A stretch of 64,000 bases of DNA from Candidatus Sulfomarinibacteraceae bacterium (lineage in GTDB: Bacteria > Acidobacteriota > Thermoanaerobaculia > Thermoanaerobaculales > Sulfomarinibacteraceae). Below are positions 4,716 to 61,365 of this stretch, piece by piece. The stretch is from positions 32,001 through 96,000 of the forward strand of contig CAWCLO010000010.1 in NCBI GenBank assembly GCA_963796455.1, read 5' to 3'. The position numbers were made by a program, and so were the translations under genes. Each line of letters begins with the position of its first letter. Within the stretch, counting starts at the first letter, position 1. The notes below the pieces were generated by a model that saw nothing but the letters and a program-made list of their open reading frames with translations, was not told the origin of the DNA and searched no databases.

Positions 4716-5064
4716 GGGGGCGTCCAGGTTTTGACGGGGAACGGTTCCGGTTGTCGGCAGCGTGTCGAGGGTCATCCGCTCGTTAATCGGGTGAAGGCAA
4801 CTACAACTGCCGATAATAACTACGCTCTGGCTGCGTAAGTAGCCACGTCGCTCTCGAGGCTCGGCCCGTCGGTCTGAGAGGGACGAAGTTAGATGGGCTG
4901 GACCGCCGTAGCGCCCGAATACGGAGGTCGAGATTTTTCGGGCTGGCCGCGAGGAAGGTTGCCAGCTAACTGACCACGCGGTGAGATAAACTAGCCGGCT
5001 GCACACGGAGAAACCGGCGACCGGAGTTCCTCGGACGTGGGTTCGATTCCCACCGCCTCCACCA
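4716..5064 (+). ncRNA. ssrA: tmRNA; tag (A)ADNNYALAA encoded at 4809-4838
   Basis: 5' GGGGGCG pairs with 3' CGCCTCC-ACCA including a G3:U pair. T-arm GGGTTCGATTCCC. Internal ORF ends YALAA*. Confidence 0.97.
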
Positions 5065-8511: not shown

Positions 8512-8568
8512 ATCGGTGTCGCACAGATGATGCGGGCCGACCCGGTTCGTGCGATCATCGTCAGCACA

Positions 8569-11500
8569 ATGAGAATCTCCCAGAAAAAATCCGCTATTGC
8601 TCTGCTGGTCTTGCTCGTGGCGCTGCCGCTGGGTGCACAGTCGGACAGCTCTCAGCCCGACGTCAGCCTTCGCCAGATTCGCGAGCTCCGTGCCCAGGTC
8701 ACAAACAACGCGTCGCATGCAGAGGATTTCAGAGCTCGCGTGATCGAACTCTGCGATGTCGCAACAGGAGCTCTCGAGAGTGCACAGCGCAATCATTCCG
8801 CCGCACAGGCCTCGAATAGCGAGCGGAGCGGCATTGGGCGCGAAATGGAGGCGATCCAGCAGAGGCTGCGTCAACCCGAGCGAGTGGCAGGAATCGATCT
8901 CCCGAGCGAGGCCACGATCTACCAGGCCGAGGATGCGCTGGCTCGTGAACGATCGAGGCTGGCGGCCCACCGGACCGCGGTCACCGAACTGCAACGGAGA
9001 AGAGAAGACCGCGCGGCGGCTCGAAACGACGCCTCACAACGTCACGGTCTGCTCGATCAGGAAATTGAATTGCTCAACGCAGAGCTTCGGTTGCAGGCCC
9101 AGAGCGACGCCCATCCTGACCTCAAGAAAGCTGTTCGTCTCAACCTGCTCGCGCGAAGAGAAGCGGCCCAAAGCGAAATCGAAAAGCTTGGTGCCCTGCT
9201 CGATCTGCTCGAAGAACGCGGAGCGCTGCTGCCCCTCGAGATCGACCTCGCTCAGCGGCGGGTCGCGACTTCCGAAGAGTCGGTTCATCTCCTCGAACAA
9301 GCCGCCCAGACGATTCGGCTGGAAGCGGCCGCGGCAGAGCTTGGACGTGTTCGCACACTGAGTGACTCGATCACGAAGGCGGCACCAGAATTCGCCGGAA
9401 TTGCGGCCGAGACGGTGAAGATCGCTGAAGTCCTCCTTGGTGCGGATGGGGTCACGGCGAGATCCGAAAAAACCTCGAGAGACATTGCCACCCTGCAGAA
9501 GAACCTTGTCGAACTCAACCGGATCGCGGAGCTGACGCAGCGCAAATTCGAGGCCTTCGGAAATCGCGGCAGCATCGGACGATGGTGGCCGACCTTCCCC
9601 CCCGACTTTCCAGAACCGGGTTCAGTGGCCAAAAAGATCACTTACCTCGATGGCGAAATCCCGGAGGTCGAACACCAACTCATTTCATACGAACAGCAGC
9701 GCTCTGAGTCGCGAACCCTCGCGCGCGCGTCCCTGCTGAAGTTGCAAACCACCTACGGCGACGAACTCGACCCGAAACTCATAGCTATGGTCCGCGAGTT
9801 GTTTCAAGTTCGACAAGACCTGCTCGACGACATGATTCGATTTGGTGCCAGATACTCGACCCAACTTTCTGAACAACGGACCCTTGCCGCCACTTTTCAC
9901 CGACGACTCGAGCGGGCCGAAAAGTTTCTCTATGCACACGTTCTGTGGTCACGCAGTGTTCCAAAACCGATCGTCCCGCGTCTGAAAGATATTGCCGACA
10001 GCATCCGATGGCTGGCGTCCACCGACCACCTCAGATCGCTGAATGTGGTTGGCGCCAAACTCAAGGGCCGCGGCCTCGTGATGATGCTCATTCTGGTGTT
10101 GATCATTTTGCTTCGCCGACCGATCAAACGTCGCCTGAGCGACCTTGCAGACCAAACAATGGAACCGGAACAGGATTCGCTTCGACTCACCATCGAAACC
10201 CTTTTCTTCACCGTGGTTTTGGCCGTGCCGCTCCCTCTGGCAATTAATGGCGCAGCCGATTTCGCGCAGCGCTTTGGTGATTCGACATTCTGGATATCGG
10301 CAGCGGAAGCTCTGCCCATCATCGCAATGACTGCCGCATTCCTCGAATTGACACGACAACTCTTTGCGCCGCGGGGTCTGGCCGAAGCTCATTTCGGGTG
10401 GCCGACTCTGGCCACACAGACACTCCATCGCGGGCTGCGATGGACCGAAGCAATCGGCCTGCCCCTGCTCTTTGTTGCCGTTCTCCTGGTCTTTGCCGGA
10501 GTGCGATTCGATAGTACGCCCGACCTCCAGGTCTACAACAACTCACTTGGTCGGTTGGCCTTCATCGCGGCGATGACAGTCCTGGGCTTGTCCATTCTTG
10601 CCATCCTCCGTCCGGTGAGAAGAAGCGAACGGGGCAAGCGGGACGTCAGGGTTCCGTGGCCTCGGCGGTTTTCGGAATACGCCTTTCCGACGGCCTTTCT
10701 CGGCGCCTATCCGATGGTCGTCATCGCCACTCTCGTACCGGCGATGCTGGCGGTCTTCGGTTTCTACATCTCCGCTGTACTCCTCGCCTATCAGATGCTG
10801 CGAACCCTTTGGCTGGTGTTGGTCCTGTTGATCGCCGGCGGGCTGATTTATCGCTGGCGGGTGGTGAATCGGCAACGGACCCTGACCGAACTGGAAGAAG
10901 GCGACGAAGTTGCGAAGCGAATGAAAACCGTTGAAGAGTCGGAACGGCAGGTCGGACAACTCTTTCGCTTCACAGTCATCGCCGTTGTGACCTTTGGCCT
11001 TTTCTCGATCTGGAGTGACGCCCTTCCGATGCTTCAGATCTTCAAGCGTGTACAAATTCTTCCGCACATCGAATTGCTCGCGGCAACGGAAGAGCCGGCA
11101 TCTGTATTTGACACCGCCGATCAGGAGACTGCAAAAGCCGATCCGCCATCCGCGGTCATCACCGACCCGGCTACACCCGCGACCCAAGCTCAACCGCCAT
11201 TGACCCTTTGGAATCTCTTCAAGGCGCTCATAGCCGCCGCCTTCACATTCGCGTTGGTCAAGAACCTTCCGGCGGTGATCGAGATTATCCTCCGGCGCAG
11301 GACGAATCTCGATGGCGGCGCGAGGTTCGCCTTCAGCACCCTTGTTCGTTACACCATTACGATCGTCGGTTTGATACTGGTCTTCGGTCTGCTCGGAATC
11401 ACCTGGGGCCGAGTTCAATGGCTGGCCGCCGCTTTGACATTCGGTCTGGGCTTCGGCTTACAGGAAATCGTCGCCAACTTTGTCTCCGGTCTCATCCTGT

Positions 11501-12036
11501 TGATCGAGCGACCGATCCGGGTCGGCGATGTGGTCACAATCGGCAACCTGATGGGGAAGGTGTCCGAGATTCAGATCCGCGCGACCACCATCACCCTGTG
11601 GGACCGCAGCGAAATGATCGTGCCCAACAAGGAATTCATCACCACCAAACTGGTCAACTGGACCCTTTCGGACTCCAAACGCCGGATCGAGATTCCCGTC
11701 CGGATCGCCTACGGCGCCGATATCGAACAGGTCAAGACGATCCTCGTCAAGGCCGCCAACGAGCACCCATCGGTGCTCCCTGAACCCGCGCCGCATGCCC
11801 TGCTGCTTGCATTCGGTGAGGACGCGATGAAGATCGAGCTTCGTTTTGTCGTCGATTTTGGTCAGGGACTCGCGACCAAGGACGAGGTCCAGATGGTGAT
11901 CGAACAAGAATTCGGAAAACAGGGCATCAAATTTGCCCTGCCGCAGCGCCAGGTTCGGGTGGTTTCAGAAGGTGGCAGCGATGGTCAACCAGCCGCCGGT
12001 TTCGGACATGGAGAACCAGAACGTACCGAGTCGTGA
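8569..12036 (+). CDS. Large mechanosensitive channel, MscS family (MscK/KefA-like)
   Basis: Signal peptide, long coiled-coil periplasmic region, multiple TMs, [36 protein letters not shown]. Confidence 0.92.
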   Translation: [1155 protein letters not shown]

Positions 12037-12286
12037 GGCAGGATGCTGGATGCAGGATCACTGCTGTCCAAAACAGATCGTCATGAAGTTTCCCACCTGA
12101 CAAAACGTGGATTACGGTTCGGTTCTTGGCATATCCAGTTCGCGGTTGCCTCGTGCCCGCGTCCGCGTCCGAATTACAGCGGCAGCGGCAGAGACAGTGT
12201 CCAGGGGGCAGGGGACAGCGAAAGGGACAGTGGTCAGTTTTCAGCGACGGGGAGCAGTGGCAGCAGTCTGGAGTTCATGCGGCGAA

Positions 12287-12426
12287 ATGGCCACCTCCGG
12301 GTCGTTCAAAGGAAGGGGTAGCCGGTGGGCGGCCGATGTCAAGGACAGGCAGGGTGCAGGGCATCCTTGACATCGGCCACCACACCGGCTTGTGGCAAAG
12401 GGCATGAACGACCCGGAGGTGACCAT
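12287..12426 (+). promoter_or_regulatory. Long hairpin leader sequestering RBS/ATG of the four-helix-bundle gene (copy 1)
   Basis: 12287-12308 pairs with 12405-12426 (21/22), and the right arm includes GGAGGT and the AT of the ATG. Inner stems: 12320-12327/12383-12390 and 12331-12345/12364-12378. Confidence 0.75.
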
Positions 12427-12778
12427 GTCCAACGCCGCCACGAACACCAACCTCGTTGCCCACTCGAAGGCCCTCGAAGCAGCAGGAATCGCGATCAAGC
12501 TCGTGATGAGGGTTCCTGCTCCTCTGAAGTCGATTGCCGATCAGGTGATCCGATCGGCAAGTTCAGTTCCTGCGAACCTGGCAGAAGGGCACGGCCGAGT
12601 CGGAAGGGACCGGTCGTACCACTGGAGAATCGCTTATGCCTCGGCCAAAGAGGTCGACAGCCACTTGCAGCTTCTCGCACATGCCGGGGCGATCAGCCGA
12701 ACAGCAGCCCGTGACGCGATGAAGGTCTTCGATCAGGTCCGTGCCATGACCTGGCGGCTGTTGAACCCGACGAAGTGA
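12425..12778 (+). CDS. Four-helix-bundle protein (23S rRNA intervening-sequence protein / Avd-like family), copy 1
   Basis: DQVIRSASSVPANLAEGHGR...IAYASAKE signature; GGAGGT RBS before ATG 12425; 117 aa. Confidence 0.9.
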   Translation: MSNAATNTNLVAHSKALEAAGIAIKLVMRVPAPLKSIADQVIRSASSVPANLAEGHGRVGRDRSYHWRIAYASAKEVDSHLQLLAHAGAISRTAARDAMKVFDQVRAMTWRLLNPTK

Positions 12779-13006
12779 GCGCGGTTCGCTAACGCTGCCC
12801 CGGCCGCTGGTCGCTGCCGCTGGCTACTGAACGCTGCCGCCGTTCACTGTTCCCTGCCGCTGTCACTGCACGCTATCCGAGACTCTGTCTTGGACAAGAG
12901 TGATGCAGGATGCAGCGAGATCATCGGTCCCCCTCACGGGTTGTCAAGAACCGTGTGCGATGAATCCTGGATCCTGTGACCTGAATCCTGTATCGAGCCT
13001 ATGGCG

Positions 13007-16554: not shown

Positions 16555-16632
<78 letters not shown>

Positions 16633-16660
16633 TTACTCCATGACCCCGCGCTGGAAACCT

Positions 16661-16737
<77 letters not shown>

Positions 16738-16753
16738 TTTCGATTCGTTTCGT

Positions 16754-16830
16754 GGTGGGCGTAGCTCAGTTGGTAGAGCACAGGATTGTGGCTCCTGTGG
16801 TCGTGGGTTCGATCCCCATCGCTCACCCCA
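16754..16830 (+). tRNA. tRNA-His(GTG), including G-1
   Basis: Anticodon arm CAGGA-TTGTGGC-TCCTG; C discriminator; CCA end. Confidence 0.96.
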
Positions 16831-16842
16831 AAAATTTTATGT

Positions 16843-16919
16843 GCGCCCGTAGCTCAGCTGGATAGAGCGATAGCCTCCGGAGCTATAGGTCGCTGGTTCG
16901 AATCCAGTCGGGCGTACCA
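16843..16919 (+). tRNA. tRNA-Arg(CCG)
   Basis: Anticodon arm ATAGC-CTCCGGA-GCTAT; CCA end. Confidence 0.96.
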
Positions 16920-26232: not shown

Positions 26233-26478
26233 CATAGCTATCCAAGACATATCGTCATGCAAAGTCGCCCGATTGACAACATGTGGTTTACAGGTTGGTT
26301 TTCGGCACAATCAGTTCGCGGTCGTCCCGTTCCCGCGCCCGAGTCCGAGTCCGTGCCGGTATTGCAGCGGCAGCGACAGTGTTCGGCGACAGGGACAGGG
26401 ATCAGCCATCAGTGTTCAGCGGCAGCGTTCAGGAGTCCAGTCGGCGATGCGGCCAACGCCGGGTCATTCAACTGAAGG
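26233..26478 (+). mobile_element. Truncated copy 3 of the four-helix-bundle cassette (left end, CAG-rich arm, first hairpin arm; no ORF)
   Basis: 26233-26259 matches 12059-12085 at 22/27. 26421-26478 matches the reverse complement of 59458-59515 at 50/58. Confidence 0.75.
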
Positions 26479-26484
26479 CGAAGT

Positions 26485-27156
26485 TTATGCCGGGGGGCGA
26501 CCTCGTCTCGGGCCCGGTGTGGTGCGCTTGAGGGTCTGCAAAAGGACCCGACCCGGTCCCGAGAGACGGGTCATGAACAGCCCCTCGCCGCCAAAGGCCA
26601 TCCGGCGGCAGCCGGCCACTCCCTGGATGTCGTAGTCGACCGAATCGGCAAAGGCTGCCAGGCTGCCGGTCGAGACCAACACCGCCTCACTCTCCGCCAA
26701 CTCACGCTCGATGAAATCTCCCGAGCCGTGGACCAGCACCGTGCCGGAGCCCGAGATGTGCTGCAGGAAAAACCCCGCACCACCAAAAAACGCGGCACCG
26801 GCCCGTTTGGCGACCCGGACATCGATCACGACCCTTGGGCCGAAAGCGGCGACAAAGGAACCGCGGGTAGTGATCACCGGCGAGTCATCCAGAGACCACG
26901 CAATGATCTTGCCCGGTTGATTGGCGGCCAGCGTCGCTCGCTGGCCATCGGCCGAGGCCTCGAGAAAGGTGAGTGCAAGGCCCTCACCGGACATCATCCG
27001 CCGTGCCGCTCCACCGGCGCCGCCCGGCACTTTGAGATGCCAGCCCAGCCCCGGATCGAGAGCCACCAACGAACCCTTGCTCGCCCAACAGGACTCGTTC
27101 TTGTCCAGGGTCAGATTCGCGACCTGCGCCAACTCGCCATCAATGGTGTACTGCAT
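26485..27156 (-). CDS. AIM24 / TIGR00266 family protein
   Basis: SGEGL, FFGGAGFFLQHISGSG, FGGEGLF..RLSGPGRVLLQT. Confidence 0.9.
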   Translation of the reverse strand: MQYTIDGELAQVANLTLDKNESCWASKGSLVALDPGLGWHLKVPGGAGGAARRMMSGEGLALTFLEASADGQRATLAANQPGKIIAWSLDDSPVITTRGSFVAAFGPRVVIDVRVAKRAGAAFFGGAGFFLQHISGSGTVLVHGSGDFIERELAESEAVLVSTGSLAAFADSVDYDIQGVAGCRRMAFGGEGLFMTRLSGPGRVLLQTLKRTTPGPRRGRPPA

Positions 27157-58885: not shown

Positions 58886-59620
58886 CACATTGTCCAAGAT
58901 ACGGACTCGGACAGCGTTCAGGGACAGCGACAGGGCACGGCGGACAGGGTCAGCGACTGTAACCAGCGGCAGCCACCAGCGACAGCAATCGGCGCTCACT
59001 TCTTCGGATTCAACAGCCGCCAGGTCATGGCACGGACCCGATCGAAGGCGTTCATTGCGTCACGAGCGGTTGTCCGATTGATCGCCCCGGCGTGGACAAG
59101 GAGCTTCAAGTGGCTGTCGACCTCTTTCGCCGAGGCGTAGGCGATTCTCCAGTGGTACGACCGGTCTCTCCCGGATCGGCCGTGCCCTTCAGCAAGGTTT
59201 GCAGGGACTGAACTTGCCGACCGGATCACCTGATCGGCTATGGACTTCAGCGGAGCTGGAACCCTCATCACAAGATTGATCGCGATTCCTGCTGCTTCGA
59301 GGCCTTTCGAGTGGGCAACGAGGTTTGAGTTCGTGGCGGCGTTGGACATGGTCACCTCCGGGTCGTTCATGCCCATCCCCAAAAGCCGGTGTGGCGGCCG
59401 ATGTCAAGGATGCCCTGCACCCTGCCTGTCCTTGACATCGGCCGCCCACCGGCTACCCCTTCCGTTGAACGACCCGGAGGTGGCCATTTCGCCGACTGGA
59501 CTCCTGATCGCTGCCGCCGCCGCTGTCCTCTGTCTCTGTTGCCTGTCGCTGACGCTGGACACTGTCGCTGCCGCTGGCGCTGATCACTGTCCCTGTTTGC
59601 CACAGCGGAACCGCGGTCGC
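58886..59620 (-). mobile_element. Four-helix-bundle cassette, copy 2 (3' end conserved, 5' boundary unclear)
   Basis: ATCACATTGTCCAAGA (58884-58899) matches the copy 1 terminus. It has the same leader hairpin (59348-59487) and CAG/CTG-rich arms. Confidence 0.65.
58996..59349 (-). CDS. Four-helix-bundle protein (23S-IVP / Avd-like), copy 2
   Basis: 117 aa, 12 substitutions versus copy 1 (~90% identical). Confidence 0.9.
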   Translation of the reverse strand: MSNAATNSNLVAHSKGLEAAGIAINLVMRVPAPLKSIADQVIRSASSVPANLAEGHGRSGRDRSYHWRIAYASAKEVDSHLKLLVHAGAINRTTARDAMNAFDRVRAMTWRLLNPKK

Positions 59621-61271: not shown

Positions 61272-61365
61272 AAGCCGCGAAGCGGCGACAGACATTAGCC
61301 TGGGGCGTCAGCCCCAGGTTCCGGGACCAATAAAAGAAACAAGCCCCGGAGGGGCGACAGATTCC
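61272..61365. repeat. REP-like element (AGCCGCGAAGCGGCGACAGA ... CCTGGGGCGTCAGCCCCAGG ... AGCCCCGGAGGGGCGACAGA)
   Basis: Two small hairpins each followed by GACAGA, flanking a central palindrome. Confidence 0.65.

Follow-up and report, generated by a model that had tools for sequence, protein, structure and literature searches.

The 844-bp unit at positions 12059-12902 of the window, as the whole 64,000-nucleotide stretch of analysed DNA is called here, is very probably a transposase-less cassette in which IS4-family ends and a 9-bp target duplication surround a hairpin-wrapped four-helix-bundle gene, and which has likely been moved in trans by a cognate IS4 transposase. The first-pass annotation had described a dispersed unit with three copies in the window. 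A genome-wide search of the termini confirmed a mobile unit that is dispersed through the genome, with sharp common ends and site-specific 9-bp duplications, and showed the family to be larger than was then seen.

Layout of the cassette and its distribution

The unit, its inverted-repeat ends and its 9-bp flanks all lie where the first-pass annotation had placed them. Starting 2 bp past an mscS-like gene (8527-12036; MscS domains in the profile search), a heptamer array of three GCWGGAT repeats (12038-12058; plus strand, as are all parts of the unit) forms the insertion target. The 9-mer ATGCAGGAT stands on either side as the left (12050-12058) and right (12903-12911) copies of the target duplication, the former fitting the palindromic family consensus AT[CG]CWG[GC]AT. 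The left terminal inverted repeat (12059-12077) equals the 3' end of autonomous IS4-family elements; it is identical to that of the element L098 over the first 18 of 18 bases and to that of L123 over 19 of 19. It is followed by a left subterminal unique segment (12078-12153; 81% mean identity among 29 full copies), a 5' arm of purine-rich hexamer repeats that varies in length and is complementary to the 3' arm (12154-12288), and a leader hairpin recognised by covariation and predicted pairing (12292-12421). Next come the 117-aa PF05635/TIGR02436 four-helix-bundle gene (12425-12778), which is antisense relative to the transposase gene of the parent IS, and a 3' arm of pyrimidine-rich hexamer repeats (12779-12867). 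The right end is a 35-bp near-palindrome (12868-12902), the last 19 bp of which (12884-12902) form the right terminal inverted repeat and match the 5' end of the autonomous IS. The two ends agree at 18 of 21 positions as originally quoted, and at 16 of 19 when counted from the true terminus.

In the leader hairpin the outer stem pairs 12292-12308 with 12405-12421 and covers the GGAGG ribosome-binding site, and the inner stem pairs 12321-12344 with 12365-12389. An in-frame ATG at 12404 would give a possible 124-aa product (MNDPEVTM in 51 of 59 copies), and an ORF scan places an overlapping 129-aa frame (12325-12714) inside the unit as well. No sigma-70 promoter or terminator was found inside the unit, nor any Rfam match on it. 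A promoter-like site on the minus strand (12947-12920) and a second, degenerate heptamer run (within 12920-12997) lie just beyond the right end. As had been noted from the sequence, the window holds no rRNA (Rfam) and no match to the transposase and RT families searched; it carries tmRNA, four tRNAs and Acido-Lenti-1 RNA (4716-5064, 16555-16916 and 61273-61318; Rfam).

Both further copies in the window are real. The second gene-bearing copy (58887-59596, minus strand; ORF 58996-59349) is identical to the focal protein at 105 of 117 residues and keeps the right end, with no recognisable left end or duplication. The third is a left-end fragment (26233-26502, plus strand) comprising a degenerate left end, the hexamer arm and the start of the hairpin. 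Across the assembly (5.02 Mb in 10 contigs, 90.5% complete) the family amounts to 243 merged loci of copies and remnants, covering 113 kb or 2.26% of the genome. When matches running from residue 1 to at least residue 114 are counted, leaving out frameshifted and truncated copies among 106 tblastn segments, there are 59 full-length ORFs, every one of them open (58 of 117 aa and one of 112). Both ends flank 28 of these coding copies; 18 have only the right end, five only the left, five neither, and three carry a right-type end on the left side. Genome-wide, 109 left ends and 72 left-right pairs spanning 341-895 bp were identified. Within the genus, 15 of 18 sampled genomes contain matches, from 1 to 53 each, and the congener G006 has undergone a young burst, with 28 ORFs at 98.2% identity and an exact duplication in 14 of 27 cases.

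The same genome contains other repeats and transposase-type genes. A second dispersed family of ~530-900 bp with octamer-like repeat arms (C1:2062-2763, C4:285053-285953 and others; 32 matches of at least 200 bp) showed neither a clear gene nor a terminal repeat. There are also three IS91-type (Y2_Tnp) elements (C6:37096-38933, C7:279899-281563 and C7:285081-286913) and six Y1_Tnp (RAYT-like) genes (L012-L017), of which L012 is flanked by its own inverted repeats.

The hairpin-wrapped core and its protein

The hairpin core is the most conserved part of the cassette (94.5% across 29 full copies; ORF 86%, arms 68-78%). In a set of 27 hand-chosen, related leaders, with the structure derived from the same alignment, both partners have changed at 18 of 40 pairs, a count that exceeds that of every one of 500 shuffles and every slid control. 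The structured leader proposed in the first-pass annotation is thus real and covarying; arm-to-arm conversion would likewise produce compensatory changes in it. G-U pairs are scarce in the palindrome, which shows no bias towards either strand (G-T 23 versus A-C 32; in the arms, G-T 122 versus A-C 100), and the better fold falls on the sense strand in 12 of 27 leaders, which is no strand preference. With neither G-U excess nor strand bias, the hairpin may act as RNA or as DNA. The element RNA is predicted to fold well (z -6.9, with no more than 20 shuffles for comparison). In a read-through transcript, prediction places the ribosome-binding site wholly within paired sequence, and the complementary arms (~77 aligned arm positions per copy in 29 copies) close a stem around the ORF.

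Several further features of the leader were observed. On the minus strand of window positions 12300-12345 the left arm holds TTGACA and, after 16-18 bases, TA, in 24 of 27 leaders and 54 of 55 copies in this genome, and the right arm never does; this is a possible leftward promoter that lacks the usual final T. At L085:2480-3345 two four-helix-bundle ORFs stand head to head around one perfect palindrome, an arrangement which suggests that the leader hairpin may have arisen by inverted duplication of the 5' region. At six loci (L018, L024, L028, L031, L033 and L034) the leader interior has been swapped for an unrelated segment, with part of the outer stem still covering the ribosome-binding site.

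The core is found in more than one setting. Among 80 related loci with leader and ORF, 22 have IS4 ends on both sides, 26 have ISL3-type ends on both sides, 13 have an ISL3-type end on one side and 19 have neither, the ISL3-type pattern being a loose one that allows chance matches. At least 7 of 8 bp are duplicated at 14 of the 26 loci with two ISL3-type ends, and at L264 an autonomous ISL3 with those ends adjoins an ISL3-ended cassette. In a midpoint-rooted tree of these recombining sequences, from which support values are absent, the IS4-ended ORFs form one clade nested among ISL3-ended ORFs. The presence of the hairpin-plus-gene core between ISL3-type ends in relatives indicates that the core has changed vehicle. 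The ISL3 element and ISL3-ended cassettes at L264:936-2400 lie within arrays of another heptamer, GAACGTT; the IS4 and ISL3 families alike insert into arrays that have a 7-base period and a palindromic core.

Across the phylum, 23 of the 30 best-scoring family genes (30 genomes) sit between locus-specific inverted arms, compared with 4 of 60 control genes, all taken from this genome, and none of the 20 family-gene loci scanned has an Rfam match. Four unrelated single-copy TIGR02436 genes here (C4:1278079, C1:983116, C9:2705 and C10:733016) are each enclosed, as judged by eye, by inverted arms built from short repeats of 6 to 9 bases, the unit differing from gene to gene. The frequency of inverted arms points to a native core that was captured by IS ends, and we take the arm-wrapped gene to be the native form.

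The 117-aa protein had been assigned to the intervening-sequence protein family, and it does pass the curated cut-offs of both PF05635 (53.6 versus 33.8 bits) and TIGR02436 (56.4 versus 24). It is modelled as four helices (pLDDT 95), with Xcc0516 and BT_0352 as best structural matches (Z 16.7 and 17.4). Avd matches more weakly (PDB 4DWL and 8UB7; TM 0.76-0.80, Z 13.7-14.3, identity 8-10%), and Z values of ~13-14 are near the range of unrelated helical bundles. The protein is basic, with a pI of 10.7. Putative nucleic-acid binding, as proposed in the first-pass annotation, would be based on this pI and on the likeness to Avd in fold.

Pairwise dN/dS between copies is 0.16. Variants shared between copies give an omega of 0.13-0.23, and singletons one of 0.57-0.67 (p 0.004-0.03), in tests that are low in power and in which sequencing errors among singletons would push omega toward 1. 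When singleton alleles that are also present in relatives' copies are left aside, 27 synonymous and 59 nonsynonymous changes remain (omega 0.75, p 0.13). In the full young clade of G006, with one of 29 sequences dropped for a 5' indel, all singletons together give omega 0.24-0.28; 14 of the 32 are alleles known from older copies (12 of them synonymous), and the remainder comprise 7 synonymous and 11 nonsynonymous changes (p 0.16). New private mutations therefore look near neutral, while the ORF is conserved between copy lineages, so the selective filter acts on the alleles that get copied. The low dN/dS of the shared variants makes a purely neutral passenger insufficient as an explanation.

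Copies recombine, with four gametes at 1398 of 1770 site pairs and linkage that decays within tens of bases; the decay with distance lies beyond all 2000 permutations, and the distances obtained from different regions agree poorly (0.02-0.41). Moreover, an ORF-less subfamily with a common replaced core stands at 76 places, where it outnumbers the intact form, and for this reason the gene is not needed in cis. The same junction occurs in 71 of these, and could alternatively have spread by gene conversion.

It is possible, if doubtful, that the protein does more than travel and actively assists the core in trans, in which case an Avd-like oligomer would bind to the hairpin or the arms and promote copying, conversion or transposase action. 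Such a role is compatible with IS4-mediated movement, and the ORF-less copies would then parasitise the protein as MITEs parasitise transposase. Strong constraint on shared variants beside near-neutral private ones is the pattern expected of selection on founding or donor copies; gene, hairpin and arms have been kept together through a change of IS family; and the locus-specific arms around family genes elsewhere in the phylum, the Avd-like fold (Z 14.3) and the basic character of the protein all fit a helper. However, the identity to Avd is low and the Z scores approach those of unrelated bundles, the ribosome-binding site is predicted to be occluded in RNA made by read-through, the search for a sense promoter gave none, and the Coxiella homologue is reported in PMC4990558 as not made in vivo and decaying.

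That the gene is instead a host-useful passenger, each copy being kept by selection on the host, is unlikely. The 59 intact copies and the partial constraint seen when all singletons are pooled, here and in G006, would be in keeping with it, but this constraint loses significance once alleles shared with other copies are left out. In addition, genomes of a single genus have anywhere from 0 to 101 matches, and deletion derivatives are numerous. On the preferred reading of a cassette moved in trans, the protein would be a passenger dispensable in cis, with its sequence filtered at the level of the family and not strongly per copy, and the leader hairpin would keep read-through transcripts from being translated.

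Candidate helper elements, target duplications and the probable route of movement

A candidate helper is L098, a 1411-bp element in the congener G017 with the same ends and a DUF4372+DDE transposase (NF033592, 251 bits versus a cut-off of 115; YREK motif). In addition, 14 metagenome elements were chosen from 79 end-motif loci for a partner end 1.37-1.60 kb away (1367-1602 bp), and all 14 encode relatives of the L098 transposase at 50-66% identity. Only L123 among these has a 9-bp duplication (9/9); L098 has none. The cassette right end corresponds to the IS 5' end in L098 and in all 14 metagenome elements, and the passenger is therefore antisense to the lost transposase gene. Eight short metagenome elements of 323-449 bp (L121, L138, L147, L166, L169, L178, L190 and L199) have the same IS4 ends and exact 9/9 duplications, with no four-helix-bundle gene.

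A cognate transposase was not found in this 90.5%-complete assembly (tblastn best E 0.17; no match to the DUF4372 and NF033592 profiles), nor in G006 despite its young burst; among 25 genomes of the genus it turned up in a single one. Beyond the PF01609, Y1_Tnp and Y2_Tnp families, the searches of this genome covered Mutator, ISL3, DUF4372, NF033592 and RVT_1, none of which gave a match. The sole PF01609 gene of the genome (C7:291077-292135) was rejected as helper because its element has different ends. Weak end-like matches at L099, L103 and L107 were likewise rejected, as they have no partner end and a barely similar transposase (best E 0.014), which we take to be IS1380-like. No two copies in the genome are identical (best 98.7%), as one would expect if the helper is no longer present. 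The proposal in the first-pass annotation that the unit is mobilised in trans thus becomes the best reading through the autonomous IS4-family elements with the same ends, even though this assembly yields no cognate transposase. Its suggestion of an undescribed mobile unit is not supported as a new class of mobility, because ends, size and duplication fit mobile insertion cassettes.

Spread via single-stranded hairpins and an HUH enzyme (RAYT or IS91-type), in the manner of REPINs, is highly improbable for the cassette. The genome does have six Y1_Tnp and three Y2_Tnp genes, and covariation in the leader palindrome, with its scarce G-U pairs and lack of strand bias, is of the kind expected of a DNA palindrome. 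Against this, the terminal repeats are identical to those of a DDE element and the duplication has a fixed length of 9 bp; DDE-type terminal repeats with a fixed-length target duplication are not known as HUH products. Moreover, the flanks of one RAYT-like gene (one of the six Y1_Tnp loci, compared by eye) and of one IS91-like element are unrelated to the cassette. An HUH route is a possibility for the arm-wrapped core where it lacks IS ends.

Even less probable is an RNA route that depends on a reverse transcriptase and in which the protein would play the part of Avd in diversity-generating retroelements. The fold relation to Avd and the predicted folding of the element RNA would agree with such a route, and RVT_1 genes occur in 11 of 24 congeners, with eleven in G006. 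Nevertheless, no RVT_1 gene was found in the 90.5%-complete assembly of this genome, G004 has 47 matches and no RT match, and both ends of the unit are intact DNA-transposon ends. Nor is variation, taken overall, specific to adenine (A 0.079, C 0.078, G 0.076, T 0.032), the nine four-fold A sites being those that vary most (0.26 versus 0.08-0.17).

An exact 9-mer repeat is present in 20 of 72 end pairs, compared with 1.9 in shuffles (maximum 6 in 200 shuffles), and no exact match at lengths 4-8 or 10-15 was found among the 72 pairs. A 2-bp duplication in a 7-periodic array mimics one of 9 bp, so the two are inseparable at the focal site. The 72 pairs were therefore split into 49 array sites, the focal one included, and 23 non-array sites. 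At the non-array sites mean 9-mer identity is 0.715, compared with 0.321 in shuffles (maximum 0.449 in 2000 shuffles), and a match of at least 8 of 9 occurs at nine sites, compared with 0.41 expected. At the array sites, where duplication and array periodicity are inseparable, the 9-bp match is better in 15 cases, worse in 9 and tied in 25. The 9-bp flanking repeat is a real target duplication, since it holds outside heptamer arrays too. The doubt raised in the first-pass annotation, that the surrounding array could explain the repeat, thus stands for the focal site taken alone and fails at the 23 non-array sites. That the repeat is mere heptamer periodicity throughout, with copies spread by recombination between arrays, can be set aside almost entirely: 49 of the 72 paired elements, the focal one among them, do sit in arrays, but relative to the null the 9-bp signal is strongest at the non-array sites and the ends match autonomous IS.

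The target consensus is palindromic, and insertions occur in arrays of either orientation (23 and 19 of 72). Reconstructed empty sites are mostly intergenic, a long open frame being spanned by 4 of 47, compared with 167 of 300 random positions. No precise empty allele behind the mscS-like gene, of the kind that the first-pass annotation had looked to for support, was found in public-run contigs or among congener orthologues: in the fragmentary contigs (4 of 24 runs) none of the joints listed skips the unit, and the six mscS orthologues in congeners that do not have the cassette are only ~75% identical, one having just 280 bases of flank. One of the six has a heptamer array at the corresponding place. 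These cassette-free orthologues are not precise empty alleles.

For the cassette moved in trans, the following course may be envisaged. Repeat arms, leader hairpin and gene would have existed first as a core, which was captured between ISL3-type ends and later between IS4 ends. A helper IS, since lost or unassembled here, would have driven bursts of transposition, after which copies would have exchanged short tracts by recombination and thrown off ORF-less derivatives that themselves multiplied.

Relation to known elements

A mobile insertion cassette is defined by two IS-type inverted repeats, no transposase gene and one or more passenger ORFs, and MIC231, of the IS231 subgroup of the IS4 family, ranges from ~700 bp to 3 kb and has been shown to move in trans by means of its cognate IS (PMC6199540). 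The present cassette falls within the structural definition: IS4-family inverted repeats surround a passenger ORF, there is no transposase gene, the ends are common to autonomous IS, and the duplication length is a fitting one. It differs from MIC231 in that its ends start CACT and its duplication is 9 bp (MIC231 has CAT... ends and a 10-12 bp duplication) and in that trans-mobilisation is shown for MIC231 and inferred here. Further differences are that one passenger is present in 59 intact copies, the family making up 2.3% of the genome, and that the cargo is a structured module also found between ISL3-type ends.

The candidate helper elements fit the IS4Sa subgroup by size, YREK motif and the short end signature in Table 1 of PMC2266710, which gives the end signature CA------T, a length of 1150-1750 bp and a duplication of 8-10 bp. 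The cassette ends begin CA with T at position 9, the 9-bp duplication lies within the 8-10 bp range, and the matching autonomous elements are 1.37-1.60 kb long with DDE and Y(2)R(3)E(6)K motifs. Unlike IS4Sa elements, the cassette is without a transposase. Its ORF-less derivatives (341-684 bp) resemble MITEs in that they keep both ends and have multiplied, whereas the full cassette form carries a conserved gene.

Like ORF-bearing 23S rRNA intervening sequences, of which the Coxiella IVS with S23p is an example (PMC4990558), the cassette holds a gene of the same protein family in a loop closed by complementary arms. Unlike them it lies outside rRNA and is dispersed and intergenic, with IS ends and target duplications; no TIGR02436 match was found at rRNA motifs on C10. 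With the Avd protein of diversity-generating retroelements (PMC6182149 and PMC10053308) the modelled protein shares the four-helix fold and a basic character, but the cassette has no RT, template, variable repeat or adenine bias, and the protein is closer to Xcc0516 and BT_0352. Identity as MIC231, as an rRNA intervening sequence or as a diversity-generating retroelement was accordingly rejected, on end type, on location outside rRNA and on the lack of RT and adenine bias, respectively. No description of this cassette family was found in the literature searched, most subscription papers being outside its scope.

A broader and decidedly tentative reading may be offered, in which the intervening-sequence protein would be the trans-acting factor of unrecognised selfish modules. 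The gene would lie in a repeat-armed hairpin loop, and its product would bind its own hairpin as an Avd-like oligomer and promote copying or conversion. The module would hitch-hike on unrelated IS families by acquiring their ends, first of ISL3 and then of IS4, and rRNA intervening sequences would be instances of this module that had come to lie in rRNA.

According to PMC4990558, neither where ORF-bearing intervening sequences come from nor what their protein does is clear; it records two old ideas, one making them remnants of transposition and the other giving the ORF a part in mobility. The same gene family is now found in an element that has defined ends and a candidate transposase identified by name, that occurs naturally both with and without the ORF, and that has a second vehicle; these features together make both ideas testable in one assay. 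A single cargo has been amplified to 2.3% of this bacterial genome and, across related loci, has swapped between unrelated IS families, and a transposase supplied in trans would give a testable route for the spread of intervening-sequence genes.
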